DNA from: a virus
Reading direction: 5' to 3' (one strand)
IMG/VR virus record: IMGVR_UViG_3300023179_000080
Span: 10,284-74,283 of that record
Length of the DNA: 64,000 nucleotides
In this document: one piece after another, positions 7,153 to 43,492 of the stretch
How positions within the stretch are numbered: position 1 is the first letter of the stretch
How the letters are laid out: each line of letters begins with the position of its first letter
Notes under the pieces: model-generated
The model's input: only the letters and a program-made list of their open reading frames with translations
Database searches by the model: none
Told to the model about the DNA's origin: nothing
Made by a program: the position numbers and the translations under genes

Positions 7153-7498
7153 GGGTAACAAGGTCAAGAAGGGCGACGTCTACCTCATGTCGACCGGTTC
7201 CTCGGTCTTCTACATCCGCTCCCAACAGGAGCTGGATGCCCTGTACGAGGACGACCGCCGCCGGGGCGACACGCTTGACTCAGCGGGTGAACCCCGTATC
7301 CACAACCGCCAAGGTCGGATCCACTTCACAGAACCCACCACGGTCATGGTCGTCGGCCTGACCGGTGCACAGTGGGGCTCTTGGTACAACAAGCCCGTCG
7401 GACTGGTGCGAGCAGTTGTCACTTCCGGTCCCTCCCTGGGAAGGGAGGTCACGGTGACGAAGGCGGCATTGTTGGCTTCCGTGCAAAGTCACGGCTGA
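7142..7498 (+). CDS. hypothetical protein
   Basis: GC3-biased ORF. Confidence 0.65.
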   Translation: MKSKGNKVKKGDVYLMSTGSSVFYIRSQQELDALYEDDRRRGDTLDSAGEPRIHNRQGRIHFTEPTTVMVVGLTGAQWGSWYNKPVGLVRAVVTSGPSLGREVTVTKAALLASVQSHG

Positions 7499-7519
7499 AA
7501 GTGGTATAGTAAAACCATG
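7481..7519 (+). promoter_or_regulatory. early leaderless promoter (type example GTGCAAAGTCACGGCTGAAAGTGGTATAGTAAAACCATG)
   Basis: Same geometry at 7706, 7892, 8355, 8769, 9749, 13991, 14204, 15455, 17800, 19130, 35031, 37333. Confidence 0.85.
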
Positions 7520-7678
7520 AAGAACGAAGCCATCTACGAGATCGCATACTACACCCCCAAGGGCAAGCCCGGCCGGAAGCAGGTCCGTCAGTCACGGATG
7601 GTCCAGGAAGCTCGGAAGCTCCACGAGTCCGGGTACCACTGCATCCAGATCTCCGCCTACCCCCTGATCGAGGCCTGA
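7517..7678 (+). CDS. 53-aa hypothetical protein (not in ORF track)
   Basis: MKNEAIYEIAYYTPKGKPGRKQV...LHESGY; directly behind early promoter. Confidence 0.7.
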   Translation: MKNEAIYEIAYYTPKGKPGRKQVRQSRMVQEARKLHESGYHCIQISAYPLIEA

Positions 7679-7693
7679 CCCCCTTCGGGGGTC
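7677..7693 (+). terminator. GC hairpin with TTCG tetraloop
   Basis: GACCCCC-TTCG-GGGGTC right after the stop codon. Confidence 0.5.
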
Positions 7694-7741
7694 TCCCCCG
7701 AACCAGTGCAAAGTTCAACCGCAAAGTGGTATAGTTAATCC

Positions 7742-7909
7742 ATGGACATCATCAAGTATCGCATCACCTACCGCGACGCCATGGGCATGCCTGGGTTCAA
7801 GGATGTGCTTGCATCCCAAGTTTACAGGGCAGTGCAGAACCTCACCGACAAGGGTTACACCATGGTTGTAATCAATCCTGAGCCTCACATTGTGCAAAGT
7901 CATTCCTGA
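7742..7909 (+). CDS. 55-aa hypothetical protein (not in ORF track), paralog of 7517..7678
   Basis: MDIIKYRITYRDAMGMPGFKDV...LTDKGY; behind early promoter. Confidence 0.7.
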   Translation: MDIIKYRITYRDAMGMPGFKDVLASQVYRAVQNLTDKGYTMVVINPEPHIVQSHS

Positions 7910-7927
7910 AAAGGGTATAGTAGTCTC

Positions 7928-8350
7928 ATGAGCACACACTCCTACATCGGCATCCAGAATGACGAAGGCTCCATCCACGCGATCTACTGTCACTACGACG
8001 GCTACCTCGAAGGCGTCGGCGCGGACCTCCTCCAACACTGGTCGGACCCGGAGAAGCTGGGGCGGCTCATCGATCTGGGAGACCTCTCGGGCCTCGGTGA
8101 CGACCTAGACACCACCCAGGCCTATGAGCGGGACTTCGGCGAGTCGAACGCCGGTTGCCGAGGCTTCTCCGACCTGGAGGAGCTTCGCTTCGAGGCCATG
8201 GGTGCGTACTCCTACGTCCTCACCCCGTCCGGTTGGATCTACTCCAACAACGGGGAGCGGTTCCGTCCCTTCCCGGCTGCCTTCGTGGCCAAGTATGCTC
8301 CCCAGCCTGAGCAGCTCTCCCTCCCGTTCCCCGCTGCCGAGCAGCACTGA
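7928..8350 (+). CDS. conserved phage protein (IYCHxDGY family)
   Basis: MSTHSYIG..IYCHYDGYLEGVG..L..GDLS. Confidence 0.8.
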   Translation: MSTHSYIGIQNDEGSIHAIYCHYDGYLEGVGADLLQHWSDPEKLGRLIDLGDLSGLGDDLDTTQAYERDFGESNAGCRGFSDLEELRFEAMGAYSYVLTPSGWIYSNNGERFRPFPAAFVAKYAPQPEQLSLPFPAAEQH

Positions 8351-8390
8351 GTCCGTGCAAAGTCACGATTGAAAGATGTATACTGAGAAC

Positions 8391-8765
8391 ATGATCAAGA
8401 ACGCCATCACGATCAAGGACCTGTCCAACACCTACCTCCACGCCAAGTTCAACGAGGTGGTCACCCTCTTCCGGGAGCTCAGCATCGCCACCGGCCTCGG
8501 TGCCGACGTCCTCATCCTGGAGGAGTTCGGCACCACCTTGGTCCAGAACTCGTGGAACGATGACGGGGGCTTCTACGTCCGTTACCGCCTCCATCCCCTG
8601 TACTCCCACATGCCCAAGCTGGTGGACGCCTCTCGGCTGGCCCAGGTCCGCTTCGCGGGCATCTTCGGCAAGTCCCAGTTCAAGGTCGACTTCGAGAACC
8701 CCGAGGACCGCAACGGGAACATCACGGTGTCCGTGGCCACGTGCTCTCACTCCATCGGCGACTGA
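8391..8765 (+). CDS. hypothetical protein
   Basis: Early promoter; GC3 bias. Confidence 0.75.
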   Translation: MIKNAITIKDLSNTYLHAKFNEVVTLFRELSIATGLGADVLILEEFGTTLVQNSWNDDGGFYVRYRLHPLYSHMPKLVDASRLAQVRFAGIFGKSQFKVDFENPEDRNGNITVSVATCSHSIGD

Positions 8766-8804
8766 GCGGTGCAAAGTTCAACGTGGAAAGTGTATACTGA
8801 ATCC

Positions 8805-8963
8805 ATGGAACACGACGAGTTCAAAGACGACTGGCAGTACCTTCCATCACCTGAAGAACACACTCGGGAGTGCTGGGAGTGGTTCAGGGACATGATTGAA
8901 GATCGCCCGCATGCTGGACGGACAGTGACTGACGCTGTACGATTCCTACAGCTCGCTGTATAG
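8805..8963 (+). CDS. hypothetical protein
   Basis: Early promoter at 8769. Confidence 0.6.
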   Translation: MEHDEFKDDWQYLPSPEEHTRECWEWFRDMIEDRPHAGRTVTDAVRFLQLAV

Positions 8964-8971
8964 TTAATCGC

Positions 8972-9142
8972 ATGAAGACACACCTAAGCAAGTTATTCAG
9001 AGATTCTCGCGGTGCCACGATGGTCGAGTACGGCCTCATGCTCGCCCTCATCCTCGTCCTTGGATACATCGGCTATACACAGCTCGGCGCAAAGGTCAGC
9101 AAGGCCGGCAGCGACGCAACCGGTGCATTCGGCAGCCACTGA
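8972..9142 (+). CDS. flp: Flp/Fap (Tad, type IVc) pilin, 56 aa (not in ORF track)
   Basis: MKTHLSKLFRDSRG|ATMVEYGLMLALILVLGYIGYTQLGAKV...: prepilin G-1, E+5, Y+6 Flp motif and hydrophobic helix. Confidence 0.85.
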   Translation: MKTHLSKLFRDSRGATMVEYGLMLALILVLGYIGYTQLGAKVSKAGSDATGAFGSH

Positions 9143-9148
9143 CAGACC

Positions 9149-9460
9149 ATGAAGAAATTCTTCATAGCATCATTTCTCGTAGTAGCCTCTTGCGGAGACG
9201 ATGTTCGGCCCAAGAGCATCGATCCCATTGGGAGCAAGGATGCCTCTTTCGCTTACGTTGATTCCGGTCCGGTGGATCCTTGCGACCCACCTGTGGAAGG
9301 CTGTCCGTGCCTCGACGTGGGTGTTGGTGAACAGTTTTATTGCGGCGTTGTCTATCGAACCAGCGGCGATCATGTCGATTGTTCGAAGGGCTATCGAACC
9401 TGTCAAGATGACGGTGGGTGGGGTCCATGCCTGGGCGACACGGTCTGGGCAGGTGATTGA
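9149..9460 (+). CDS. Cys-rich lipoprotein, myxobacterial type
   Basis: Lipobox VVAS-C; EGCPC...CSKGYRTCQDDGGWGPCLG. Confidence 0.75.
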   Translation: MKKFFIASFLVVASCGDDVRPKSIDPIGSKDASFAYVDSGPVDPCDPPVEGCPCLDVGVGEQFYCGVVYRTSGDHVDCSKGYRTCQDDGGWGPCLGDTVWAGD

Positions 9461-9479
9461 CGTATTATCTATTGTTTAC

Positions 9480-9527
9480 GCAAAAACAAAAAGAAAGGAT
9501 ATCGGCCTTGTGCCGTAAGTTATTCAG
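9480..9527 (+). mobile_element. 48-bp IS200/IS605-family LE/RE fusion remnant (PATE-like scar)
   Basis: TTTAC|GCAAAAACAAAAAGAAAGGATATCGGCCTTGTGCCGTAAGTTATTCAG|; left part matches the left end and right part the right end of the tnpB element at 15746-16928. Confidence 0.85.
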
Positions 9528-9552
9528 CATCAAGAATATGCTGAGTGAAGGT

Positions 9553-9777
9553 ATGCCCTCATACTCGGGATTGAGGACGATGCCTCAGGACGATCCTGAG
9601 CAGAGTTTCTTGCGTCAGACGCTTGCAGCAAATCAAGGACAAGAGGAAGTCGTCGTCCTCAAGGTGTCCCACCGGGTGGAAGACCCAGCTCTCAAGGCTG
9701 AGCTCCTCCGTCCCCGTAACATTGACGATTTTTTGAGTAACGCTGGGGGTGCAAAGCACCGCGGCGATGGAGTATAA
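9553..9777 (+). CDS. hypothetical protein
   Basis: ORF; start uncertain. Confidence 0.5.
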   Translation: MPSYSGLRTMPQDDPEQSFLRQTLAANQGQEEVVVLKVSHRVEDPALKAELLRPRNIDDFLSNAGGAKHRGDGV

Positions 9778-9784
9778 CTGTTAC

Positions 9785-9967
9785 ATGATCATCTTTCAAG
9801 TCTCTCCCGAAGACGTCACACGTAGTTCGACTCTCGACAAGAACGACATCGGCAAGTGGTGTTTCACCGCAAACGGTTGCGTCATGGGGTTCTTTGATAC
9901 CCGTGACGAAGCCGAAGACGCTCTGTCTCGCCGACGTGTCCATCACATGAATGCGGAGTACCGATGA
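9785..9967 (+). CDS. hypothetical protein
   Basis: Early promoter at 9749; GFFDTRDEAE motif. Confidence 0.7.
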   Translation: MIIFQVSPEDVTRSSTLDKNDIGKWCFTANGCVMGFFDTRDEAEDALSRRRVHHMNAEYR

Positions 9968-10218
9968 GAGGCGCCGTCTCAATTAAGAAGATCGACAAAC
10001 ACGGATGGTTGGGTAGGACCCTGCATCCTGAACCTCGCCACGAAGGTAGGATGGCTCTAGTCGAGTCAATCGAAAAAGTTGATCTGGACGAGGACGACAC
10101 TGTTGACTACTATCTGATTCGAGCAACCACCCTTACGGGTGAACGTCTCGAGCTGATGGAACATGAGATTGAATGGTTGGGCCCAGATTCTGAGCAGCCC
10201 GGATATACAACTGTTTGA
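9964..10218 (+). CDS. hypothetical protein
   Basis: ATGA overlap. Confidence 0.65.
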   Translation: MRGAVSIKKIDKHGWLGRTLHPEPRHEGRMALVESIEKVDLDEDDTVDYYLIRATTLTGERLELMEHEIEWLGPDSEQPGYTTV

Positions 10219-10221
10219 GTT

Positions 10222-10509
10222 GTGTTTATTTTTCATGTCACTCGAGTTGATCTTCCAGACTGGGATGAATACATCGATTTTGTAATGGTTGCACCGACGG
10301 CTGAAGTCGCCAAATATACACACCCATCAGCAAAAGACGCAAACATCTACAAGTGGTCTGATGAGACCCAGTCTTGGGTCTATGTTGACACAGGCAACTA
10401 CGCTCCACACAATGGGTGGGTAGATCCCAGTAAAGTCGGCGTCAGACTCATAGGGATAGCTCACGACGTCACTACACGAATAATCACGACAAACTACAGA
10501 TCAGGATAA
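10222..10509 (+). CDS. hypothetical phage protein
   Basis: DWDEYIDFVMVA...HP...W..V.VRLIG.A pattern. Confidence 0.65.
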   Translation: MFIFHVTRVDLPDWDEYIDFVMVAPTAEVAKYTHPSAKDANIYKWSDETQSWVYVDTGNYAPHNGWVDPSKVGVRLIGIAHDVTTRIITTNYRSG

Positions 10510-10511
10510 CA

Positions 10512-10703
10512 ATGGCAATTAAGAAAGAAATTCTCGACCTCGATAGCCTCATCGCTCGTGTCAAATACACTGAAATGTCAGCCTCACTTCGTGCTGAGCT
10601 CCTTGAAGCACTGGACGCATTCCGCGCTGTGAGAGATAAACAAACACCCAATCACGCTGCTACGACCTCGCACGAAGCTAATGTTCGTTCTTCACGTAAA
10701 TAG
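10512..10703 (+). CDS. hypothetical protein
   Basis: AGGA RBS. Confidence 0.55.
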   Translation: MAIKKEILDLDSLIARVKYTEMSASLRAELLEALDAFRAVRDKQTPNHAATTSHEANVRSSRK

Positions 10704-10941
10704 CTGGGGGTTTCATTAGTGACCGCTGACTGAGATCGTCGCCCACCCAAGTGACCAATTCACCCAACACGTACGTGCCCAAGTCCCTATAGACTTCGTA
10801 CACAACGTCACCCTTTAAGACACGAAATTTGCGCGATCCATCAAGCTGTTCTTCGACCGTAAGGACAAGAACGAGTTGATCTCCTTCCCAGATGAGATCG
10901 CCTTGGCGCACGACGGCCATGGAGAGCCAATTGTCCTCCAT
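10678..10941 (-). CDS. small beta-barrel hypothetical protein
   Basis: VRQGDLIW..LVLVL..FRVLKGDVVY; ATACTTA upstream. Confidence 0.6.
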   Translation of the reverse strand: MEDNWLSMAVVRQGDLIWEGDQLVLVLTVEEQLDGSRKFRVLKGDVVYEVYRDLGTYVLGELVTWVGDDLSQRSLMKPPAIYVKNEH

Positions 10942-10980
10942 GGCAATAAGTATCAAAATCGCTAACGAACTTGATTAAAA

Positions 10981-11193
10981 ATGAAGATGCGAAGTATTCA
11001 ACCAGGTCAAACTGTCACGCTCTCCGAACAAAACGAATCCGCCGGGCTAGCAGATGATATTCTGCCCAAGACCGGGTCCAACAAGTTTACTCCTCAGATG
11101 GTTGGGACTGTGTTGGAGACTCGCACGTTTGTTCGTGTTATTGTAGGCACGACAGTCGGGTGGATCGATGAGACAAAGATCAAGATGGCATAG
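10981..11193 (+). CDS. SH3-like small protein
   Basis: IQPGQTV...VGTVLE..VRVIVGTTVGWI. Confidence 0.65.
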   Translation: MKMRSIQPGQTVTLSEQNESAGLADDILPKTGSNKFTPQMVGTVLETRTFVRVIVGTTVGWIDETKIKMA

Positions 11194-11334
11194 CCGAGAT
11201 TCGATTGATGGCTACTATCATCCACGCTTTGGTCATTCTATCACAGGCTGTTGCGGTCGTGGGTGCAGCGGTCGCGTGCGGCATCATCTTGATGTCGTTT
11301 GCTGAAACATTAGATCACCGTGTACGGAGCAAAC

Positions 11335-11577
11335 ATGACGACACAAAACGACCCAAATAAACCCAAGGTATCAATATTCACTTACGTCGCGACTAAGCTA
11401 TTTGCAGCAAGCTTGGTGCTAGCGATTAAATCTTTCATCGCAGAGTTTGCATGGAACTTGGGTGCTGGGGCACTTTTTAGCCTACCCAACATCAGTTTTA
11501 AAACTGCTTTTGCATTAGTGCTGCTGAGTGATGTACTATTCAAGGGAGTCACGAAGAGCATACCCGAGCTCGAATAA
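11335..11577 (+). CDS. small membrane protein
   Basis: Two hydrophobic segments, WN..LF.LP.ISF..AF. Confidence 0.65.
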   Translation: MTTQNDPNKPKVSIFTYVATKLFAASLVLAIKSFIAEFAWNLGAGALFSLPNISFKTAFALVLLSDVLFKGVTKSIPELE

Positions 11578-11604
11578 TTAGTTTCTTGTCGCATAGTTTA
11601 AACT

Positions 11605-11829
11605 ATGCGGAGAACGATCGACACTCCGTATTTTCGACGAGGGGATCTCGTTTCGTGGGAAGAATTCGATGTTGATAGCTTCAGCTCAGTCCCTAAGATA
11701 GGGATACTGCTGAGGTTCTACGAAGACTTCCAATACGAGACTCACGCTTTTGAAGTGTTGTTGACTACGGGTGACGTAGTGTACAAGGTGCTGCCCCTCG
11801 ACGATCTTGAAGTTTTATCTTCTGTGTAG
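11605..11829 (+). CDS. SH3-like small protein
   Basis: FRRGDLVSW..IGILL..EVLLTTG. Confidence 0.65.
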   Translation: MRRTIDTPYFRRGDLVSWEEFDVDSFSSVPKIGILLRFYEDFQYETHAFEVLLTTGDVVYKVLPLDDLEVLSSV

Positions 11830-11858
11830 AATCACATGTTGTAGTATAATTTGTCGTT

Positions 11859-12218
11859 ATGGCTCTTACGCCGGGTGAGATACAGCTTCTGCAGAGAGAA
11901 GTTGAGCATCTTCGAGAAGAAAACTTGACTCTAAGGGGAATGTTGGCCCGCTCGACAGCGTCGTGCTATTACTGCAGGCTTCCAGCCGGAAAAACGTCTG
12001 AATGCTCCCGTGGGTTTCCAGGTTGTCTCAGGATGGAAGATGCCATTCACGATCCCGGGTTCCTTGCGGGTGAGACCATCACCGCCGATGACGACGTCTT
12101 TGATAGACCCACGGTGCCTGACCTTGTTGCCCTCGACGCAGGACCATTCAAGAAGATCCCAGACACTGGTGTCTCAAGGATCGATCTCCACAATATTGAC
12201 CCTGATGAAGATGAATAA
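11859..12218 (+). CDS. hypothetical Zn-binding/coiled-coil protein
   Basis: CYYC...C.RGFPGC; TATAAT upstream. Confidence 0.65.
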   Translation: MALTPGEIQLLQREVEHLREENLTLRGMLARSTASCYYCRLPAGKTSECSRGFPGCLRMEDAIHDPGFLAGETITADDDVFDRPTVPDLVALDAGPFKKIPDTGVSRIDLHNIDPDEDE

Positions 12219-12402
12219 GATGAAAGTATACGCAATCGACGAAGGTAAGAAGCCCAGCCGCATATTGGTCATGGTAGAATCAAGCGCGACCGAGAAGCCG
12301 CGGTGTGTAGCAGCAGTTCACACGAGTGAGGCTTATCTTGCGATTAAGAGGCTGATGGAAAGCGAAAATTCATCGATCGTACAGCATACAGTATATACAT
12401 GA
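12211..12402 (+). CDS. hypothetical protein
   Basis: Fills the gap between adjacent genes. Confidence 0.5.
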   Translation: MNKMKVYAIDEGKKPSRILVMVESSATEKPRCVAAVHTSEAYLAIKRLMESENSSIVQHTVYT

Positions 12403-12638
12403 AGCATCTACTCAGTGTCGTCGCAGCAGCTTTCTTCGCATCTCTCTCTGGATGCGCAGTCCGAGGACCGGTCGTTTACGACCCGTATTACACGCCGCAA
12501 CCACGTTACTATGGCAGCTATTACTCACAACCAATCGTCGTTCCCGTGCCTTCGCAAGTGATCGCAGTCCCAGGTCATGTCTACGTTAGACCGGGCTGGG
12601 GTTACCGTGCACACGGCGGTCGCGGATGGCGTCATTGA
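12399..12638 (+). CDS. Pro/Tyr-rich lipoprotein
   Basis: Lipobox LSG-C; YVRPGW..GWRH tail. Confidence 0.7.
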   Translation: MKHLLSVVAAAFFASLSGCAVRGPVVYDPYYTPQPRYYGSYYSQPIVVPVPSQVIAVPGHVYVRPGWGYRAHGGRGWRH

Positions 12639-12648
12639 GTTGTAGATC

Positions 12649-13029
12649 TTGACTACGTTTGACTATGGTATTGGGATGCTACAGATCCCAGAACGTGGTT
12701 TCTACGTCTACAACGAAGTAAAGTACGAAGAGTCAGAGAAAGCTCGATTGGGTAAAGCCTGGCAACGGGCCACCGGGATGGAGCCGGCAAGGGAGCCCAA
12801 TCTCGAAAACCTCGATGACCTACAGGTAATCTTCTGCACGGGCACAGAAGAAGTACACCATCAGTGGTGGCCGCGATATTTTGGCAAGAACTGGAAGCCA
12901 CTATTGTGGATCTGCGAGGAGCTGTCGGGTCGCCTACAGACCGAGTGGGATCGATACGAAACAAGCCCGATTCCGTATGAGATCCCACCGTATAAACCGC
13001 CACGCAAACGTGGTAGAAATAAACTATGA
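12649..13029 (+). CDS. hypothetical protein
   Basis: 126 aa ORF. Confidence 0.6.
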   Translation: MTTFDYGIGMLQIPERGFYVYNEVKYEESEKARLGKAWQRATGMEPAREPNLENLDDLQVIFCTGTEEVHHQWWPRYFGKNWKPLLWICEELSGRLQTEWDRYETSPIPYEIPPYKPPRKRGRNKL

Positions 13030-13265
13030 GTGAGAAGATCAACAAGGTCTGTATCGACAATCTGACGTCTTTTCTTGCGGACGGCGAGACTTTCACGAGT
13101 CTACACGGTTGCACAGTGCAGCTTTATTCGACACCCGCGCTACACGCGATCTGCTCAGGAGACAATGGGGTCATACCGGCAGAAACGTATGACCTGACAG
13201 ATCCAAGCCATCTGCGAAAGTTGGCAGACTTAATCGAGAGCATCCCGAAAGACATGAGACAATGA
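13026..13265 (+). CDS. hypothetical protein
   Basis: ATGA overlap. Confidence 0.6.
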   Translation: MSEKINKVCIDNLTSFLADGETFTSLHGCTVQLYSTPALHAICSGDNGVIPAETYDLTDPSHLRKLADLIESIPKDMRQ

Positions 13266-13435
13266 AACTGAAGAAGAGAGTGAAGTTCTTCCTCGCGACC
13301 GCTGCGTTCTGCGCAGCGGTCGCTCCGATCGCGTACCTTTCAACCCATGACAAGGTATCATTCTATCTCTGGGTTGTGAGTTCAGGATCACTCCTCCTCC
13401 TTGCCGTGATTGCCCACGCAGAGAATCAAAGATGA
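13262..13435 (+). CDS. small membrane protein (not in ORF track)
   Basis: MKLKKRVKFFLATAAFCAAV...; ATGA overlaps on both sides. Confidence 0.6.
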   Translation: MKLKKRVKFFLATAAFCAAVAPIAYLSTHDKVSFYLWVVSSGSLLLLAVIAHAENQR

Positions 13436-13698
13436 TCTATCTTGTGCTTCTCGGTCTATTCGCAATCGTGCACATCATCTCACCTGCACAGGCAAAGATA
13501 GCGACTCATTTGTTGGCCCGAGGTTTTCTGTTCCCGGTTGTAACATTTGTGCTTGGTACGGTTGGGTGGGGAGTCGTCAACCTGTTTACGGATTTCTCAC
13601 ACCTTGATGCCATGAATTGGCTCTACTGTTGTTCATTCTTCGGTCTCCCGGGAGCTGCCATCATCGCTTGGAGGCTACTTGACTCTGAAAATTCGTGA
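13432..13698 (+). CDS. membrane protein
   Basis: Three hydrophobic segments. Confidence 0.65.
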   Translation: MIYLVLLGLFAIVHIISPAQAKIATHLLARGFLFPVVTFVLGTVGWGVVNLFTDFSHLDAMNWLYCCSFFGLPGAAIIAWRLLDSENS

Positions 13699-13780
13699 GT
13701 GACAAATTGTCACTTGTTGAAATTGACTTTCAACAAGCAGACCCTGTGCAAAGTTTGCCCTGACTGAGGTACAGTGAATC

Positions 13781-13984
13781 ATGTCCTGGATCATCCAATA
13801 CACGCAGCCCAACGGGCGCACGGTCACCCGCAACACCTTCGCCAACACGGCGGAGGAGCTCCAGCCCGCCGTGGCCGAGCTGCGCCGGCGGCACTGCTAC
13901 ATGATCGAGCTCATCGCCCGGGCACCTGGGGCAGGCATCCCGCGGAAGTGGCTCGACGACGACATCATGTGGCCACGGCGCTGA
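13781..13984 (+). CDS. hypothetical protein
   Basis: Early promoter at 13746. Confidence 0.7.
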   Translation: MSWIIQYTQPNGRTVTRNTFANTAEELQPAVAELRRRHCYMIELIARAPGAGIPRKWLDDDIMWPRR

Positions 13985-14026
13985 AAAGTCGTGCAAAGTT
14001 CGAACCGAAAGAGGTATACTAGAACC

Positions 14027-14203
14027 ATGAACAACATCAAGATCGGCGACAAGGTGGTCCTCGGTGCGGTCAACGGCCTCGGTACCGGGATCTTCACGGT
14101 CCTAAAGGTGTACCACGGGGACCCGATCCACAAGCTCCTCGTGCAGGGATCCAACGGCCACGTGTGGTCGGCTCGGATCGAGGGCATCCGGGTCGTCGGG
14201 TGA
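14027..14203 (+). CDS. SH3-like small protein
   Basis: IKIGDKVV; early promoter at 13991. Confidence 0.7.
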   Translation: MNNIKIGDKVVLGAVNGLGTGIFTVLKVYHGDPIHKLLVQGSNGHVWSARIEGIRVVG

Positions 14204-14239
14204 GTGCAAAGTCCCACCTGAAAAGGGTATAGTTAGACC

Positions 14240-14974
14240 ATGGCAATCACCAAGACTTCCTACGACAGCAAGACGGGCACCACTGTGGAAGAGACCTATT
14301 TCGCAGGTCGAGTGATCGAGGTCCGCCACTTCACGGAGACCCGCAACTGGTCGTCCACCCTGGACTACTCGGACTACCGCTCCACGGAGTGCACCGAGGC
14401 CCTGGTCTGGCTGGGCACCCACAACTTCCCTCCTTACAGGAACACGACCAAGTCCGACCTGCGGGTGAACACGGGCTGCCTCAGCTCGGACGCCCACGGG
14501 ACTCGTCGCGACCTGGAGTTCTTCGAGCAGTTCGCCTGGGTGGACTGCACCAACCTCTTCTCGGACCGCAACGGCTTCGCCCTGTCGGCCGCCGTCGACG
14601 TGAGCCAGACGGATGGCTCGGAACCCCTCCTATGGGCCAACTACATCGCCTTCCAGGCGTACATGGCCGCGAAGGCCGAGGCCGCCGCCAAAGCCGCTGC
14701 AGAGGAGGCTCGCATCGCCCGTGAGGAGGCCGCTGCCCGAGCAGCTCGCAAGGCCAAGCTGGCCGCCAACCGTGCCGCCAAGGAAGTGCCCCTCCGCGCT
14801 GCGGCGGAAGCCCGCCTCCGTCAGGCTCCGGCCAAGGGCACCACGGTCACCGTGGATGGCTTCACCGGCCGGGTCTTCTGGGCCGGGGTCAACAAGTTCC
14901 GGGGCAACTTCAAGGCTTCCTACGGGGTCAAGGATGCCCGGGGCACCGTCCGGTGGGTGGAGATACCTGCTTGA
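14240..14974 (+). CDS. hypothetical protein with Ala-rich coiled coil and C-terminal SH3-like domain
   Basis: Early promoter at 14204; G.TGRVFW...GVKDARG...WV. Confidence 0.8.
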   Translation: MAITKTSYDSKTGTTVEETYFAGRVIEVRHFTETRNWSSTLDYSDYRSTECTEALVWLGTHNFPPYRNTTKSDLRVNTGCLSSDAHGTRRDLEFFEQFAWVDCTNLFSDRNGFALSAAVDVSQTDGSEPLLWANYIAFQAYMAAKAEAAAKAAAEEARIAREEAAARAARKAKLAANRAAKEVPLRAAAEARLRQAPAKGTTVTVDGFTGRVFWAGVNKFRGNFKASYGVKDARGTVRWVEIPA

Positions 14975-15453
14975 ACCCGCAGTTCCTTGCAGCGATGGCT
15001 GAGACAGCGTCGGGCATCGTCCTATCCGTGCGGAAGACGACAGACCGTGAGGCACGAAGAGGCCTCCTGAGCCTCCTGCTCACCCTATGCAGGGGGATGC
15101 AGGACGTCGCCCCGAGGAACGCCTCAACTCGTGCACAGGCAAGAGCTCACAAGCTCGGTCTGGGTGACCTGAGAGTGTACAACTTCTATGACGGTGCTCG
15201 GTTCCCGGGTGGACGTAAAGCATCGATGATGCACTGGGAGCATTGGAAGCCAGCAGTGGACCTCAGAAATGAGATCCTTGCACTGACAAGCCCGACTCCC
15301 TCTGCTGTGGAGGGTATCCTCAAGAATGCCCGGATTTGTTGGATCCTCTTGGAGGAGGCTGCATTCCTCAGGAAGCTGGGTCATAACACAGGTAGAGCCG
15401 ACCCCGCAGAGTCCTACAAGGCGGCGGGGATAGAGCTGGCATATCCTTGGTAG
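14971..15453 (+). CDS. hypothetical protein, possible HNH-like (beta-beta-alpha) fold
   Basis: HWEHWKP...ICWI..EE...L...RY-like tail. Confidence 0.55.
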   Translation: MNPQFLAAMAETASGIVLSVRKTTDREARRGLLSLLLTLCRGMQDVAPRNASTRAQARAHKLGLGDLRVYNFYDGARFPGGRKASMMHWEHWKPAVDLRNEILALTSPTPSAVEGILKNARICWILLEEAAFLRKLGHNTGRADPAESYKAAGIELAYPW

Positions 15454-15490
15454 TGTGTAAAGTCTCATCGAAATACGGTATAGTAGAACC

Positions 15491-15724
15491 ATGAACAAAG
15501 ACGCTCTCAAAATTGCTCTGGCACTGGAAGCTTCTGCGCGGCTCGTCGAGTCGGGTCGCAAAGACGTGGAGGTCCATTTCACAGAAGCTGAAGTGTTGTG
15601 GAGCGCGGCAGAATCCTTGGGTCTCGAAAAGGTGGTCGACAGCTACCTCTTTGGCTGGCAGATGGAGTCACGTAAGGCTGATTGTACAAATGCCGGCGTC
15701 GTCCCTGCTTCAAACATGAACTGA
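15491..15724 (+). CDS. hypothetical protein
   Basis: Early promoter at 15455. Confidence 0.7.
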   Translation: MNKDALKIALALEASARLVESGRKDVEVHFTEAEVLWSAAESLGLEKVVDSYLFGWQMESRKADCTNAGVVPASNMN

Positions 15725-15745
15725 CATGTGTGCAAAGTTCGGCCG

Positions 15746-16928
15746 CTGAATAACTTACGGCACAAGGCCGTAAGGTTCGAGGGTAGTCTTGCCTTCATCG
15801 ACTTTACCCTTTAGGGACTTCAGCTCGGATGATTGTGTCATCCTTCGGCCCTTCCTGCGAATCTCTTTCTTCACAGGATCGATCTTTGGGCGTAATGCGA
15901 TGTTGAAAGCTGCATTTACGTCCGCATGATCAATGTGTTCACAGTGCAAACAGTGAAACACTTTTCCATTTCTGCTCTCTTTATCAACTACTCCGCAACG
16001 AGAACATGAAGTTGATGTCCAAGCAGGATCAACAACATTCAACTCGACACCTTGCTCCTTAGCCTTGTAAGTGAGAAGCATTCTCACCTGATAGAATGGC
16101 CAAGAGTTCAAGGTGTGATTTCCTTGTTTACGGTACTTCTTCGTACAATCTTTTCTAATCCCAGAAAGATCTTCTAGCTTAATTCCAACTCCACTTTTCT
16201 TTGCTTCTTTGACTATTTTAGTTGTGATCTTGTGAATCGCATCAGTCGTCTTCCTTCTCTCACGATCCTTGATCTTCTTCAGCTGTGACCACTGCTTCTT
16301 CTCTTGCAGGTTCTGCCTGATATTCTTATACTTCTTCTTCAAGAAAGGAATCTGTTTTCCAAACTTCTGAACCTTGCCTGTAAGCGGATTTGCCACAACA
16401 ATGGAGTGAGAAGTTGAGTTAAGATCGATGCCGATGAAACTTTTAGGTTCATCGGCCTGTTGATCGGGGAAAGTCACGGAAACATAAGCCCATTTCTGAT
16501 CAATCTCGACTTGATTGAGTTTTGTCCAACCAGAAGGAAACCAACAGCGAAATTCTGCGTTGAGGCTTGGAATTCTTATTTTTCTAGTTTCTAGATCAAA
16601 CTTTAGATTTTGACCAGGAACAGTTAGCTTCACTCTCTTCGGGTTGATTGATTTGATCTTCTTGTTCAGTCCATATTTTCTAACGATCTGATTAGCAATC
16701 TCAGATTTTAGGCCAATGTGTTTGACGACTTTTGTTGAGACAAGACCATTTTCAAGAGCAAACTGCGCAACTTTAACTGCCTTCTCAAAGAGAGAAGAAT
16801 CAAAGTTCACACCATGCTTTACCTTGAACGTCTTGATCATCTCCATGATAAGTATCTTTACTTAAGAAAAATTTTAACAAAAATTCATGATATGGCACAA
16901 GGCCGATATCCTTTCTTTTTGTTGATGT
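15746..16928 (-). mobile_element. IS200/IS605-family (IS1341-like, tnpB-only) insertion sequence
   Basis: AT-rich island; subterminal hairpins CGGCCTTGTGCC at both ends; LE guide AAAG with TTTAC target; RE guide GAAC with TCAG end. Confidence 0.85.
15755..16846 (-). CDS. tnpB: TnpB RNA-guided endonuclease
   Basis: RuvC I GIDLN, RuvC II LEDL, TSTSCSRCG..CLHC Zn finger, RuvC III HADVNAAFNI. Confidence 0.93.
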   Translation of the reverse strand: MEMIKTFKVKHGVNFDSSLFEKAVKVAQFALENGLVSTKVVKHIGLKSEIANQIVRKYGLNKKIKSINPKRVKLTVPGQNLKFDLETRKIRIPSLNAEFRCWFPSGWTKLNQVEIDQKWAYVSVTFPDQQADEPKSFIGIDLNSTSHSIVVANPLTGKVQKFGKQIPFLKKKYKNIRQNLQEKKQWSQLKKIKDRERRKTTDAIHKITTKIVKEAKKSGVGIKLEDLSGIRKDCTKKYRKQGNHTLNSWPFYQVRMLLTYKAKEQGVELNVVDPAWTSTSCSRCGVVDKESRNGKVFHCLHCEHIDHADVNAAFNIALRPKIDPVKKEIRRKGRRMTQSSELKSLKGKVDEGKTTLEPYGLVP

Positions 16929-16965
16929 GTAAAGCATAGTGTGGGACCTCAGGGTGGAAAATGTG

Positions 16966-17235
16966 ATGGGTGCCTATTTCAACCGCAGCGGCAAAATATT
17001 CCTCGGCCTGATGGGAGTTCAGCTCCTCAGTGCGATCTACGATGCATACAGACAATCAGCCGACGCAGCTGCGAATCCGACTCGCGACATGGATGATGAA
17101 TCAAAAGTCCTGTACTATACACTGCTGCAGTTCCGCCGCAATGATGATTGGTCAGGCTACAACAAGTTCTGCGATCAATGCACTCCCCCCGTTCCCATGG
17201 ACGAGCGCCTTCGTATGTGGGAACGCCTTGCTTGA
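16966..17235 (+). CDS. hypothetical protein
   Basis: ORF downstream of the IS; its promoter is split by the IS. Confidence 0.6.
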   Translation: MGAYFNRSGKIFLGLMGVQLLSAIYDAYRQSADAAANPTRDMDDESKVLYYTLLQFRRNDDWSGYNKFCDQCTPPVPMDERLRMWERLA

Positions 17236-17336
17236 GTCGTTGACAGTGAAAGGGTACACTGAGAGTATGAGAGTATGAGAGATCTGAGCTTCAGCGACTT
17301 CCTCCACAACATCTCGGTCCGAGAGGACGGTGGCCA

Positions 17337-17558
17337 ATGACCTGGGACTACCGCGTCCTGTCCCGGACCACTGCGTCGGGCGGGGAGACCTGGTTGGGCA
17401 TCTACGAGGTCTACTACGACGCAGACGGCAACCCCGTGAACTGCTCGGAGACCGAGGTGTCCCCCTACGGCGAGACTCTGGAGGAGCTCCTTGCCGACCT
17501 GAAGAGGTTCACTGCGGCAGTGGAGAAACCCGTGCTTCGGTGGGAGGACTTCACCTGA
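17337..17558 (+). CDS. conserved phage hypothetical protein
   Basis: MTWDYRV...IYEVYYD..G...P.GETLEEL..DL..AVEKPVL. Confidence 0.8.
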   Translation: MTWDYRVLSRTTASGGETWLGIYEVYYDADGNPVNCSETEVSPYGETLEELLADLKRFTAAVEKPVLRWEDFT

Positions 17559-17594
17559 GCGCAGAGTCGATCATGAAAGAGGTACAGTAAGGAC

Positions 17595-17795
17595 ATGGAT
17601 AAGATCAACAAGTTCTTCGACTCAGACTTGCCTGGTGTCTTGCTCATCATGGGCGGGCCGCTCCTCGCAGTGATGTTTGTTGCCCCAGATGCTCGGACGG
17701 GTGTCACTGCAGTCGGGGTCGCGTGCACTATTCCCTTCATTGCTGCGATCGTCTTCCGCACTGTGCTGGCAATCGTTGGGAGCGAAGATCGCTGA
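17595..17795 (+). CDS. small membrane protein
   Basis: AAGGA RBS; two TM segments. Confidence 0.65.
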   Translation: MDKINKFFDSDLPGVLLIMGGPLLAVMFVAPDARTGVTAVGVACTIPFIAAIVFRTVLAIVGSEDR

Positions 17796-17835
17796 CCCAG
17801 TGCAAAGTCGCCCTCGAACGTGGTATGGTTAACTC

Positions 17836-19053
17836 ATGATAGCGATTGTGAAGGACGGGCGCCGGCCCATCAAGATGTGGGTCGAGGGTGTTCCTGTCGA
17901 AGAGCAGGCCGTACAGCAGCTCGAGCGGATTGCAGCTCTTCCCTTCGTCGGCCCGCACGTGGCAGTGATGCCCGACGTGCACCTGGGCAAAGGCGCGACG
18001 GTGGGCTCTGCGGTCCCGACGTCGGGTGCGGTGGTGCCCGCGGCGGTCGGAGTCGACATCGGCTGTGGGATGATCGCCGTGCGCACGTCGATGACGTCGC
18101 ACGATCTGCCTGATGACCTGTCGGGCCTGCGATCGGCGATCGAGGCCGCGGTTCCCCACGGTCGAACGGACGACGGAGGTCGCCACGATCGAGGCCGGTG
18201 GGGTGACGTGCCTGACACGGTGGCTTCGGTTTGGACGGACCTCCAGCCCGGTTGGCAGCGGATCCTCGAGAAGCACCCGAAGGTCCACGGCCGGTCGGGA
18301 GTCACGGCGGAGCACTTGGGCACGCTGGGGACGGGCAACCACTTCATCGAGCTGTGCCTCGACGAGGCTGACCGCGTCTGGGTGATGCTGCACTCGGGCT
18401 CGCGAGGGGTGGGCAACCGCATCGGCTCCTACTTCATCGAGCGTGCGAAGGAGGAGATGAAACGGTGGTACATCAACCTGCCCGACCAGGACCTTGCTTA
18501 CCTGCCCGAGGGCTCGCAGCTCTTCGGAGACTACGTTGAGGCGGTGGGTTGGGCTCAGGAGTACGCATCTGCCAACCGCCAGCTCATGTTGGCGGCTGCC
18601 GTCCGCGCGATGAAGGGCCACCTCCGGCCCAAGTTCGACCTGACGGACGATGCGGTGAACTGCCACCACAACTACATCTCCAAGGAGCACCACTTCGGCG
18701 AGAACCTGTGGGTGACGCGGAAGGGTGCCGTGTCGGCACGCGCCGGCCAGATGGGCATCATCCCGGGTTCCATGGGAACGCGGTCGTACATCGTCCGGGG
18801 CAAGGGCAACGCGGACTCACTGTGCTCGTGCTCGCACGGTGCGGGTCGCCGGATGTCCCGAGCAGAGGCACAGCGGACGTTCACGCTGGCGGACCACCGT
18901 GCTGCCACGGAGGGTGTCGAGTGCCGCAAGGACCGCGAGGTGATCGACGAGACGCCCGCCGCGTACAAGGACATCGATCAGGTGATGGCAGCGCAGGCCG
19001 ACCTCGTCGAGGTCGTGCACACGCTCAAACAAGTGCTCTGCGTGAAAGGCTGA
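17836..19053 (+). CDS. rtcB: RtcB RNA ligase
   Basis: MPDVHLGKG, VGVDIGCG, LGTLGTGNHFIE, HSGSRG, HNY, SCSHGAGR, DETPAAYKDI. Confidence 0.97.
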   Translation: MIAIVKDGRRPIKMWVEGVPVEEQAVQQLERIAALPFVGPHVAVMPDVHLGKGATVGSAVPTSGAVVPAAVGVDIGCGMIAVRTSMTSHDLPDDLSGLRSAIEAAVPHGRTDDGGRHDRGRWGDVPDTVASVWTDLQPGWQRILEKHPKVHGRSGVTAEHLGTLGTGNHFIELCLDEADRVWVMLHSGSRGVGNRIGSYFIERAKEEMKRWYINLPDQDLAYLPEGSQLFGDYVEAVGWAQEYASANRQLMLAAAVRAMKGHLRPKFDLTDDAVNCHHNYISKEHHFGENLWVTRKGAVSARAGQMGIIPGSMGTRSYIVRGKGNADSLCSCSHGAGRRMSRAEAQRTFTLADHRAATEGVECRKDREVIDETPAAYKDIDQVMAAQADLVEVVHTLKQVLCVKG

Positions 19054-27258: not shown

Positions 27259-27332
27259 TGCGCGGTAGCTCAGCTGGTAGTAGCAGAGAGCTGTTAACTC
27301 TCGGGTCGCAGGTTCGAGCCCTGCCCGCGCAG
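27259..27332 (+). tRNA. tRNA-Asn(GTT)
   Basis: TGCGCGG/CCGCGCA; GAGAG-CTGTTAA-CTCTC. Confidence 0.92.
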
Positions 27333-27345
27333 CTAGGAGTTTTGA

Positions 27346-39989: not shown

Positions 39990-42011
39990 TCATGTTATGT
40001 ACCACCCACCACCCAACTTGATGAAAGACATTGAGCCGTAGTTCGTGGAAATTTTGGTACCAAGCGCGTCGTCGATAGTGTCTCCGCCGCTGCCCGACAC
40101 CTCTAGGACGTACGCATTTGGAACTGAATCTCTCCTCTTCACCACGGTCTGGAATCCATCGGGTGCGCCTGATGGAAGATTGAGGACCGTCACGCTCGCC
40201 GCCGGCTCCACAAGGACGAATCCTGTGAGCGGCGCCGTGAACGGCCCGGCGCCGGAGAAAGATCGGGTCGACCAGCTCATTGTCCCCGAGAATGATCCAC
40301 TCAAGCCGGATAGAGACACGATGGATCCACTCGTGACGAGGTCTCCACCCAAGAGAGTGACAGCGGGTGTCGAAGATCCACGAGAATTCTTGGATCCGCT
40401 GACAAAGAAGAATACATCAGAGCCCAAGGTGCTGCAAGACCGCATCTCGCTGTCAAATGAGATTGGTCCACTTACAAATAGTGTGCTGCTGACCTCTAGA
40501 GACGCTCCGTATAGCACAGCCCCGTGCAACTCAGCAGTTCCGCTAACAACAAGATCTCCACCAAACATTGCAGATCCGCGATTGGATGTGCCAGCAGACC
40601 CTGCAGAGCCGCTCACGTAGAAGAACACATCGGAGCCCAGTGAACTAATTGGGTTCATCTCGCTGTCGAACGCAGTTGTCCCGCTGACCCTCAAGGTTCC
40701 GTAGATGTCAATCTCGTCACCGGTGATGTATGAGCTTCCGCTGATGACAACGTCACCTCCAAAGAGGGCCACACCTTGGGTGGAGGTGCCGGCAGATCCT
40801 GCAGAGCCGCTCACGTAGAAGAACACATCGGAGCCCTTGTCAGAGGGAGATGTGACAACTCCGTATTCGTCAAATCCACCGACAAATGCGACTGATCCTG
40901 AGGTATAGACCGATCCTGTCACGGAGCTATTGAAATAAGATGGACCACTTCCTCCACCACTGCCGGACGATGGAGATGGAACGGCAGCGCTGACGATCCA
41001 ATTGTTTGTTGTTGAATCCAACGTAACTGTGCACACAGAATATGGATCCGTGACAACGAAGGGACCCGCGGCACCATTGAAAGTTCTAGCACCATCAGTC
41101 AAAGTCAGTGAATTACCGACACTTAGACTACCAAGAACATCGGCAAACACCAGCGTTCTACCACCCACAACAGGAGGCGCAGCATTAGCCTCACGAAGAT
41201 ATGGAAGATCAGGCAATGTAACTGTGCACCCACCGGATGCCACAGCAAGCTCTACCGAGTAATTTGCCACCGAGTGATCACACTGAAATGTGCTACCCGT
41301 GACCCTCTCCTGCTGGGCATACTGCAATCCACCAGCGATTTGAACCATCGTCTGGTTGCTGTTTCCGTAGCCGTTCGACCATGATGATCCATATCCTGTA
41401 CGAATCGCCCTCCTGCCGACGGCCGCAACCTCAACACCATATTGGGCATCAATAAAATTTTGGTATGCCCTCCTGCCTTCCCAGTCGGTACCTAACCACA
41501 TGTCACGGATGCCATTGCCTCCGTCTATGCGGTATCCTATGGCTGTGTAATGATCTAAAGGAGCATCTCGGTCGGGATTGACTGTCAATCGACCATATCC
41601 ACCATCAGAACCCCTGAATGTTATCGTTGGGCATCTGATGAAGGCCGCGCTGTTGTTTGAGAAAAAGTTATAAGCTCCATCTATGTCGATTACTTGACCA
41701 CCGACAACACCTGATCCGGATGCGAGGAGGCTTCCCGTGATTTGGGTGATTCCACTGCCGCCGCCACCACCTCCGCCGCTGCCCTGAGGGCCTTGAGCTC
41801 CCTGTGAACCCTGTGAACCCTGTGAACCCTGTGAACCCTGTGAACCCTGTGAACCCTGTGAACCCTGTGAACCCTGTGAACCCTGCGGCCCCTGGTCACC
41901 TTGGGGTCCCTGTGTACCACCACCTCCCCCGCCGCCCGATTCATAGCGCGGGGGTGGGCGGAAGTATGAATAAGTTTTTCGAAACCGCTCTGCGTCTCTT
42001 TCATTTGCCAT
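39990..42011 (-). CDS. tail fibre-like protein with collagen repeat and [11 protein letters not shown] repeats
   Basis: (GSQ)9; three GSDVFF.VSGS..FGGD.V.SG repeats. Confidence 0.8.
41800..41885. repeat. 9-bp tandem repeat (CCCTGTGAA)x9, encoding collagen GSQ
   Basis: Direct reading. Confidence 0.95.
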
Positions 42012-43413: not shown

Positions 43414-43492
43414 GCCCACGTAGCCCAACCGGCAGCATGGCAAGGAATTTAAAATTCTTAAAGTGTGGGTTCGAATCCCACCGTGGGTACCA
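43414..43492 (+). tRNA. tRNA-Leu(TAA), short variable loop
   Basis: GCCCACG/CGTGGGT-A-CCA; AGGAA-TTTAAAA-TTCTT; promoter at 43376. Confidence 0.85.

Follow-up and report, generated by a model that had tools for sequence, protein, structure and literature searches.

PATEs were defined by Dyall-Smith et al. (2011, PMC3119063), who also described "terminal-only" versions of 52 bp arising from repeat-mediated deletion between near-terminal palindromes. In Haloquadratum, deletions between repeats of 22 bp and 19 bp have brought HqIRS46 and the IS1341-type ISHwa23 down to 52 bp, and for HqIRS46 full and deleted alleles were found at the same site in two strains, with four such pairs described (PMC3119063). 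These stubs were proposed to represent an inactivation route for such elements, and their mobility was left open in that account (PMC3119063). Gene-less derivatives of IS605 elements in Geobacillus stearothermophilus are presumed to be mobilised in trans (Meers et al. 2023, PMC10055086). In IS608 of Helicobacter pylori, 19 nt separate the left site TTAC from the hairpin foot downstream of it, the left guide (GL) AAAG abuts that foot, and the right site follows the right hairpin after 10 nt (He et al. 2011, PMC3201880). Reconstituted IS608 transposition used two hairpins together with both guides, and the robust LE+RE synaptic complex was lost when GR or CR was removed (PMC3201880).

The DNA analysed here (the window) is a stretch of 64,000 nucleotides from a phage record of 74,283 bases (IMGVR_UViG_3300023179_000080). 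At 9480-9527 it carries a 48-nt stub that has the same anatomy as the haloarchaeal terminal-only PATEs and is no new kind of element. As in Haloquadratum walsbyi, where ISHwa23 is a tnpB-only element of ~1.5 kb, the parent is of the IS605 type; the H. walsbyi stubs likewise are ~50 bp long with one palindrome, have neither inverted terminal repeats nor a target duplication, and occur at several sites (PMC3119063). They are preceded by a targeting sequence of 4-6 nt (PMC3119063), a place taken here by TTTAC. On the other hand, the carrier is a large freshwater phage rather than a haloarchaeal chromosome, the repeat measures 12-15 nt rather than 19-22 bp and the stub 48-49 nt rather than 52 bp, and no full/deleted allele pair was found at one site, compared with four for HqIRS46 (PMC3119063). 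What sets the present case apart from the haloarchaeal ones is the large-phage carrier, together with the fact that a phage sharing the same IS encodes a TnpA whose element has a matching hairpin. The PATE-like elements of G. stearothermophilus are similarly protein-less and share LE and RE with tnpB elements, but they keep both ends and often the guide RNA, whereas the stub has neither a second hairpin nor a guide-RNA scaffold (PMC10055086).

The stub also recalls REP sequences, the partners of RAYT (TnpA-REP) proteins, in its single short hairpin, the conserved tetranucleotide at the 5' foot and its relation to IS200/IS605 ends. The foot tetranucleotide of REP sequences is GTAG. Unlike them, the stub has a low copy number (one copy in 74 kb) and apparently derives from a specific IS nearby, and the record, which is estimated to be 23% complete, yielded no RAYT gene or other Y1 transposase.

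Anatomy of the stub and its parent element

The features of the stub and of the full-length element in the same window are as follows.

9475-9479, plus strand: TTTAC, target or left cleavage motif, outside the element; presumed TnpB TAM
9480-9527, plus strand: 48-nt terminal-only one-hairpin derivative of the tnpB IS; nt 1-35 of LE joined to the last 13 nt of RE
9480-9493, plus strand: LE linker, 14 nt, whose first 8-9 nt are the sole strongly variable part of the family
9494-9497, plus strand: AAAG directly 5' of the hairpin foot; putative left guide tetranucleotide (GL), judged from its position only
9498-9502, plus strand: GATAT, letters read directly
9498-9522, plus strand: chimeric hairpin, with LE 5' arm (GATAT + C), loop CTTGT and RE 3' arm GCCGTAAG
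9503-9514, plus strand: 12-nt core CGGCCTTGTGCC, common to LE and RE, where the LE and RE similarity arms overlap; proposed recombination joint
9515-9527, plus strand: RE tail GTAAGTTATTCAG, ending in TTCAG, with the right cleavage motif TCAG 8 nt from the hairpin foot
15746-16928, minus strand: full-length 1183-bp tnpB-only IS200/IS605-family element, the parent type, ending in TTATTCAG
15755-16846, minus strand: tnpB, 363 aa; Pfam Cas12f1-like_TNB, E = 9.4e-21
15759-15770, minus strand: RE copy of the 12-nt core, 1135 bp from the LE copy
16894-16905, minus strand: LE copy of the 12-nt core, found by pattern search
16929-16933, minus strand: TTTAC target of the full-length copy, directly preceding the element

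Every segment that the earlier note had read in the stub (TTTAC, linker, AAAG, GATAT, CGGCCTTGTGCC and GTAAGTTATTCAG) was recovered in its place, and repeat pairing together with exact 27-mer and 25-mer matches bore out its assignment of the left part to LE, the right part to RE and the junction to the 12-nt hairpin core. The first 35 nt of the stub match LE of element 15746-16928 and the last 25 nt are identical to its RE, the two overlapping in the core. In the repeat search, 9469-9517 paired with 16891-16939, the LE of the minus-strand IS, over 49 nt at 88% complementarity, and 9503-9528 paired with 15745-15770, the RE, over 26 nt at 100%. The LE 27-mer at 9488-9514 recurs exactly at 16894-16920 and the RE 25-mer at 9503-9527 recurs exactly at 15746-15770; with three mismatches allowed, each gave two matches, compared with none in 100 shuffles. 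A search of the full 74,283-base record for the core, with at most one mismatch, found three occurrences, namely in LE, in RE and in the stub. The core copies of the full element lie 1135 bp apart, and 1183 - 1135 gives 48, the length of the stub. Of the 14 linker positions, 3 differ between the stub and the resident full copy.

The full-length IS lies ~6 kb from the stub in the same phage record. The TTTAC that had been noted for it is present at LE; it occupies 16929-16933, however, and the first base of the element itself is 16928. Against Pfam OrfB_IS605, the TnpB of the window scored 23 bits, under the cut-off of 30.5. The IS has a GC content of 0.41 compared with 0.61 in its flanks, and that of the stub is 0.40, near the IS value, compared with 0.54-0.55 in the flanks of the stub.

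Minimum-energy folding of the hairpins as single-stranded DNA gave GATAT(C)GGC-CTTGT-GCCATATC, with a bulged C, for LE and CTTACGGC-CTTGT-GCCGTAAG for RE. In the stub, the LE hairpin contributes the 5' arm and the loop and the RE hairpin the 3' arm; the minimum-energy fold of this chimera pairs only CGGC with GCCG (4 bp) round the loop CTTGT. The target lies 18 nt from the hairpin foot, AAAG stands directly 5' of the foot and TCAG follows 8 nt 3' of it. This arrangement resembles IS608 in the TTAC-like target (here T-TTAC) and in the AAAG abutting the foot, while the right cleavage tetranucleotide 3' of the RE hairpin is TCAG here and TCAA in IS608 (PMC3201880). IS608 differs from the stub, whose only hairpin is chimeric and in which the 5' arm of RE and the right-guide bases are absent. 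The RE hairpin 5' arm and the preceding GAAC, by its position the putative right guide of the full element, are deleted, so that of the two-hairpin, two-guide set of a TnpA-competent IS200/IS605 element only one hairpin and the LE-side AAAG are present. Also missing from the stub are tnpB and, apart from its last ~25 nt, the presumed guide-RNA (omega RNA) region.

At 48 nt, the stub is too short for a transposase gene, and its ends are related to an IS605-type element. It carries one palindrome near a terminus, compared with one at each end in typical PATEs. It has no inverted terminal repeats (the 5' end GCAAAAAC is unrelated to the reverse complement of the 3' end TTATTCAG) and, sitting 3' of TTTAC, no target duplication, and on both counts it falls outside MITEs. 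It lies in an intergenic spacer, where it is most likely inert DNA. The stop codon of a two-gene unit (8972-9460) is 15 nt upstream.

Copies in other phages and alleles of the site

Copies were searched for by exact-pattern scans, and duplicates were merged before sites were counted. The RE 17-mer matched 3 loci in viral contigs and the RE 24-mer 6 loci in metagenome contigs. The LE 17-mer matched 7 loci in viral contigs, four of which (L008, L010, L011 and L012) lie inside GC-rich coding DNA and were dropped as chance matches. An RE 23-mer pattern had no match in 185,579 prokaryote species genomes, no TnpB relative was confirmed among 332 candidate stretches in cellular genomes, and a TnpB scan of viral contigs yielded nothing beyond the known G001 copy and its duplicate. 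The search for further copies in relatives that the earlier note had proposed thus gave five sites of the one-hairpin form (hereafter minis) in four phage contigs, namely the window, L006 (the same as L015), L016 and L019 (both in one contig of 15.7 kb) and L018. It also gave three sites of full-length copies, namely the window, G001 (a complete 298-kb phage, with a second record of the same site) and L014. None of the three full-length sites coincides with any of the five mini sites.

TTTAC directly precedes all eight copies, the flanks being otherwise unrelated and unduplicated, and all eight end in TTCAG, right after which the flanks diverge. In the alignment of the five minis, identity runs from TTTAC to TTCAG and the junction is the same in all. 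Variable columns are concentrated in the first linker columns (5 of 9, compared with 2 of 40 elsewhere; Fisher p = 0.0012), and the five minis carry four different linkers. The linkers of full-length LEs vary as well (ACATCAAC and ACGCTAAC). CATC follows TTCAG both here and in G001 and is absent from the other six copies, so the element ends at TTCAG. A similarity upstream of TTTAC (CTAT at 9469-9472 and the flank of the full copy) was likewise not found in the other six copies and was set aside as chance.

The L016 and L019 minis are 100% identical at two sites ~11.5 kb apart, in a 15.7-kb contig without any other match to the RE 24-mer. Other mini pairs are 90-94% identical but have unalignable flanks, which indicates that the minis are much younger than the phage lineages carrying them. 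The full copy of the window is 92% identical to those in other phage contigs over ~1190 bp (92% with G001), and G001 and L014 share 99.6% identity. Given that these copies are 92-99.6% identical across phage backbones that barely align, and AT-rich in GC-rich flanks, the family appears to have spread recently across diverged phages. The core is repeated in both near-terminal palindromes over 12 nt in the window copy and over 15 nt in the G001 and L014 copies.

These comparisons bear on whether the stub might be a phage hairpin with a function of its own, such as a terminator, a regulatory site or a REP-like sequence, that merely resembles IS ends. Its intergenic position and the conservation of the non-linker part among contigs would fit such a role. 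Yet the similarity extends beyond the hairpins at both IS ends and has its limits precisely at the IS boundaries TTTAC and TTCAG, the GC content is IS-like and not flank-like, the orientation of the minis relative to neighbouring genes varies between sites, and neither a promoter-like or terminator-like site nor an Rfam family was found over the stub. We regard a phage-own hairpin as highly improbable, and this reading as close to refuted.

Several observations concern the positions of the minis relative to genes. At three of the five mini sites (L015, ~1471-1524; L018, reverse strand, ~1472-1524; L019, ~1471-1524), the terminal TTCAG is exactly where a long opposite-strand ORF (of 86, 222 and 181 codons) ends. 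The complement of TTCAG, CTGAA, supplies a TGA stop, and without the element the complement of the target, GTAAA, would supply an in-frame TAA; the change in the last codon is synonymous (CTC/CTG for Leu, GTC/GTG for Val). With a stop in the same frame and a synonymous last codon, insertion at the G-TAA-A stop of a convergent gene would be silent for the protein. The same stop replacement was seen for a 55-codon frame at the full-length site L014. The L018 and L019 minis, from two diverged phage contigs, occupy the same gene slot, between the stop of a gene with a NUDIX motif (read by eye from the alignment) and the start of a gene of ~340-390 aa, with flanking proteins ~25-51% identical (tblastx). 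They lie 87 nt apart relative to the NUDIX C-terminus and look like independent insertions in one slot.

No full or empty allele of the site at 9480, the forms that the earlier note had proposed to look for, was found in phage records, viral contigs or contigs of public runs. A blastn search with 8900-10100 yielded no hit among 50,697 phage records, and the viral-contig scan gave no relative of the upstream 103-aa protein. At the other mini sites, the NUDIX protein beside L019 had no relative in viral contigs or in G000, G001 and G002. The phosphoesterase-like gene flanking the L006 mini is present in G001 (64% amino-acid identity over the gene, tblastx; 63% over a stretch in L021), but the gene upstream of it differs in G001, so there is no homologous spacer there. 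Contigs of four public runs (X1, X2, X5 and X6) were compared over 8500-17800; since contigs drop rare variants, they are silent on minor alleles. X1 and X2 contigs showed the same structure as the window, with no joint skipping the 48 nt or the IS and no insert at 9479/9480, while X5 gave only fragments of other organisms and X6 nothing.

The same contigs bear on chance similarity or an assembly artefact as the source of the stub. X1 contigs break inside it, at 9498-9511, as an artefact might, but such breaks are expected from a repeat longer than the assembler's word. One X2 contig (record 10, 9434-10435, 0 differences; X2 is possibly from the source sample) spans the stub with 41 nt on its left, and the same structure is found in four other contigs, so the join is not an assembly artefact. 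Moreover, an assembler would hardly collapse a 1.2-kb element across a repeat of only 12-15 nt, and the shuffles, which gave no match, argue against chance. We consider this explanation to have a negligible probability.

In addition, at least four X1 contigs share the 3' end of the stub (window 9473-9527) and then run into different DNA, and X1 and X2 each contain one such flank that belongs to the L018 phage. These differing flanks indicate that several stub carriers co-occur in these lake samples. For annotation, the stub accounts for an otherwise odd AT-rich 48 nt in a spacer and marks a repeat that breaks metagenome assemblies.

Probable origin of the stub and possible mobility of the one-hairpin form

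The anatomy of the stub, the presence of its parent family and the recurrence of the form at five sites are direct observations. On these grounds, 9480-9527 is very probably a terminal-only PATE that originated by core deletion of a tnpB-only (IS1341-type) IS, a judgement that leaves aside where the event took place. The interior of the IS would have been deleted between the two direct copies of the core in the LE and RE hairpins, presumably by slipped mispairing or short-homology recombination between the repeats. Such a deletion would spare the TTTAC target, the linker and AAAG guide of LE, a single chimeric hairpin, and the RE tail that ends in the cleavage motif TTCAG. Against this explanation count the linker differences from the resident full copy and the fact that no full or empty allele was found to record the deletion event at 9480. 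The earlier note had also held that relatives carrying the sequence without any associated IS would refute its reading; three mini-bearing contigs do lack a full copy, which weighs little, as they are fragments of 15.7-27.6 kb and the IS family occurs in related phages. The deletion as a route to PATE-like mini-elements, offered there as a possibility, has been in print since 2011 (PMC3119063). Our analyses suggest that this route, described from haloarchaeal chromosomes, also operates on the TnpB elements of large freshwater phages.

Where the collapse took place is a separate matter. The earlier note had proposed that a second IS copy collapsed at this very site by recombination between its hairpins. 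The anatomy fits a direct-repeat deletion, and the parent family lies 6 kb away. As to the place, the linker differs at 3 of 14 positions, which means that the stub did not arise from a recent sibling of the resident full copy, and the collapsed form recurs at four further sites in other phage contigs, an identical pair of which shares one contig. Arrival in collapsed form may thus be just as likely. The two readings lead to the same predicted sequence, since the parent has no sizeable direct repeat other than the hairpin core; the G001-type LE and RE have 15 nt in common, so either parent type should give this product. With no deciding allele found, we place collapse at 9480 and arrival in collapsed form at roughly even odds.

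Some evidence leans towards collapse in place. The four linkers among five minis suggest several origins. The missing second hairpin and right-guide position also favour it, in view of the loss of the robust two-end complex from IS608 when GR or CR is removed (PMC3201880), as do the in-place core deletions witnessed between two strains in Haloquadratum (PMC3119063). The near-invariance of the minis outside the linker fits young relics but also ongoing constraint, through function or mobility.

An alternative is that the 48-nt form is itself mobile, having been made once or a few times by core deletion and then moved 3' of TTTAC by a Y1 TnpA acting in trans, from phage or host, so that position 9480 received a mini and never held a full copy. 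We give this somewhat less than an even chance. The identical L016/L019 pair in a contig with no other RE match is what such movement would produce, minis occupy more sites than full copies (five and three), and the linker of the window stub is unlike that of the resident full copy. The Haloquadratum authors voiced the same suspicion over six strain-specific 52-bp ISHwa23 insertions (PMC3119063). In the bulged-C register, moreover, a T>C change in the 5' arm of L018 would replace a T.G by a C-G pair, although this is weak evidence, given that the minimum-energy fold does not use that register.

A candidate mobiliser is present in G001, which carries the same tnpB-only IS and also encodes a Y1 TnpA of 146 aa (PF01797, E = 2.2e-37). 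Its tnpA lies in an IS605-like element (L020, G001:C1:61760-65125), head-to-head with a 393-aa ORF presumed from position and length to be a second tnpB. The tnpA-side end of this element reads AAAG followed by ATACGGC-CTTGT-GCCGTAT, with the same loop, core and AAAG foot as the tnpB-only IS. The element bears end hairpins (core CGGCCTTGTGCCG at one end, GTCACGGC-CTCGT-GCCGTGAC at the opposite one) similar to the hairpins of the tnpB-only IS, which lies 10 kb away in G001.

Against mobility of the 48-nt form, the single hairpin retains, by position, the left guide only, whereas IS608 needs GR and CR for a robust complex (PMC3201880). The four linkers point to several origins rather than a burst from one master, and no TnpA was found in the 74-kb record, itself 23% complete. 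A further-reaching version would have the one-hairpin form as a working TnpA substrate, with the left guide alone sufficing contrary to the IS608 model, spread among co-infecting freshwater phages by phage-borne TnpA and accumulating as TnpB-proof scars; we consider this unlikely. Whichever way the stub came to 9480, core deletion is the preferred account of how the form itself was made. The five stubs, the three full copies and the phage-borne TnpA with its matching hairpin constitute a natural test set for whether a one-hairpin stub can be moved by TnpA and whether collapse is an escape from TnpB-enforced retention.

Predicted escape of the stub site from TnpB cleavage, and other repeats of the window

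TnpB cuts where the TAM abuts a guide match, the guide being read from the DNA just past RE, and it restores the element at emptied donor sites (Meers et al., PMC10055086); TnpB cleavage was also described by Karvelis et al. (2021). The earlier note had proposed that the stub site is immune to such cleavage, and the logic is sound as an extension of this published biology. Since 48 nt now stand between TTTAC and the former flank, CATCAAGAATATGCTG, a TnpB with a guide for that flank would be unable to cut. The stub itself has no guide RNA, so immunity would matter only against co-infecting genomes with a full copy at the same site. A limited literature search found no work linking terminal-only stubs to TnpB avoidance. 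On the further-reaching version of stub mobility given above, a precisely excised site would be cut again and refilled by TnpB homing, while a collapsed site would be invisible to the guide, and the stub would be the only allele both accessible to a TnpB-protected site and stable there.

Other repeats were seen in the window. The full-length IS with its target (15746-16933) lies inside one of ~9 promoter-like repeats, a family spanning 7481-17850, with the layout GTGCAAAGT ... TATAGT ... ATG ahead of small plus-strand genes; the flank just past RE includes the GTGCAAAGT box. At 41755-41927, tandem repeats of 9 nt (CCCTGTGAA and variants, 13 registers) probably encode a Gly-X-Y-like repeat on the minus strand. 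Finally, repeat families at ~100-1100, 27280-27335 and 43468-43492 resemble T-arm and anticodon-arm sequences of tRNAs, which suggests a putative tRNA gene cluster at the start of the window.
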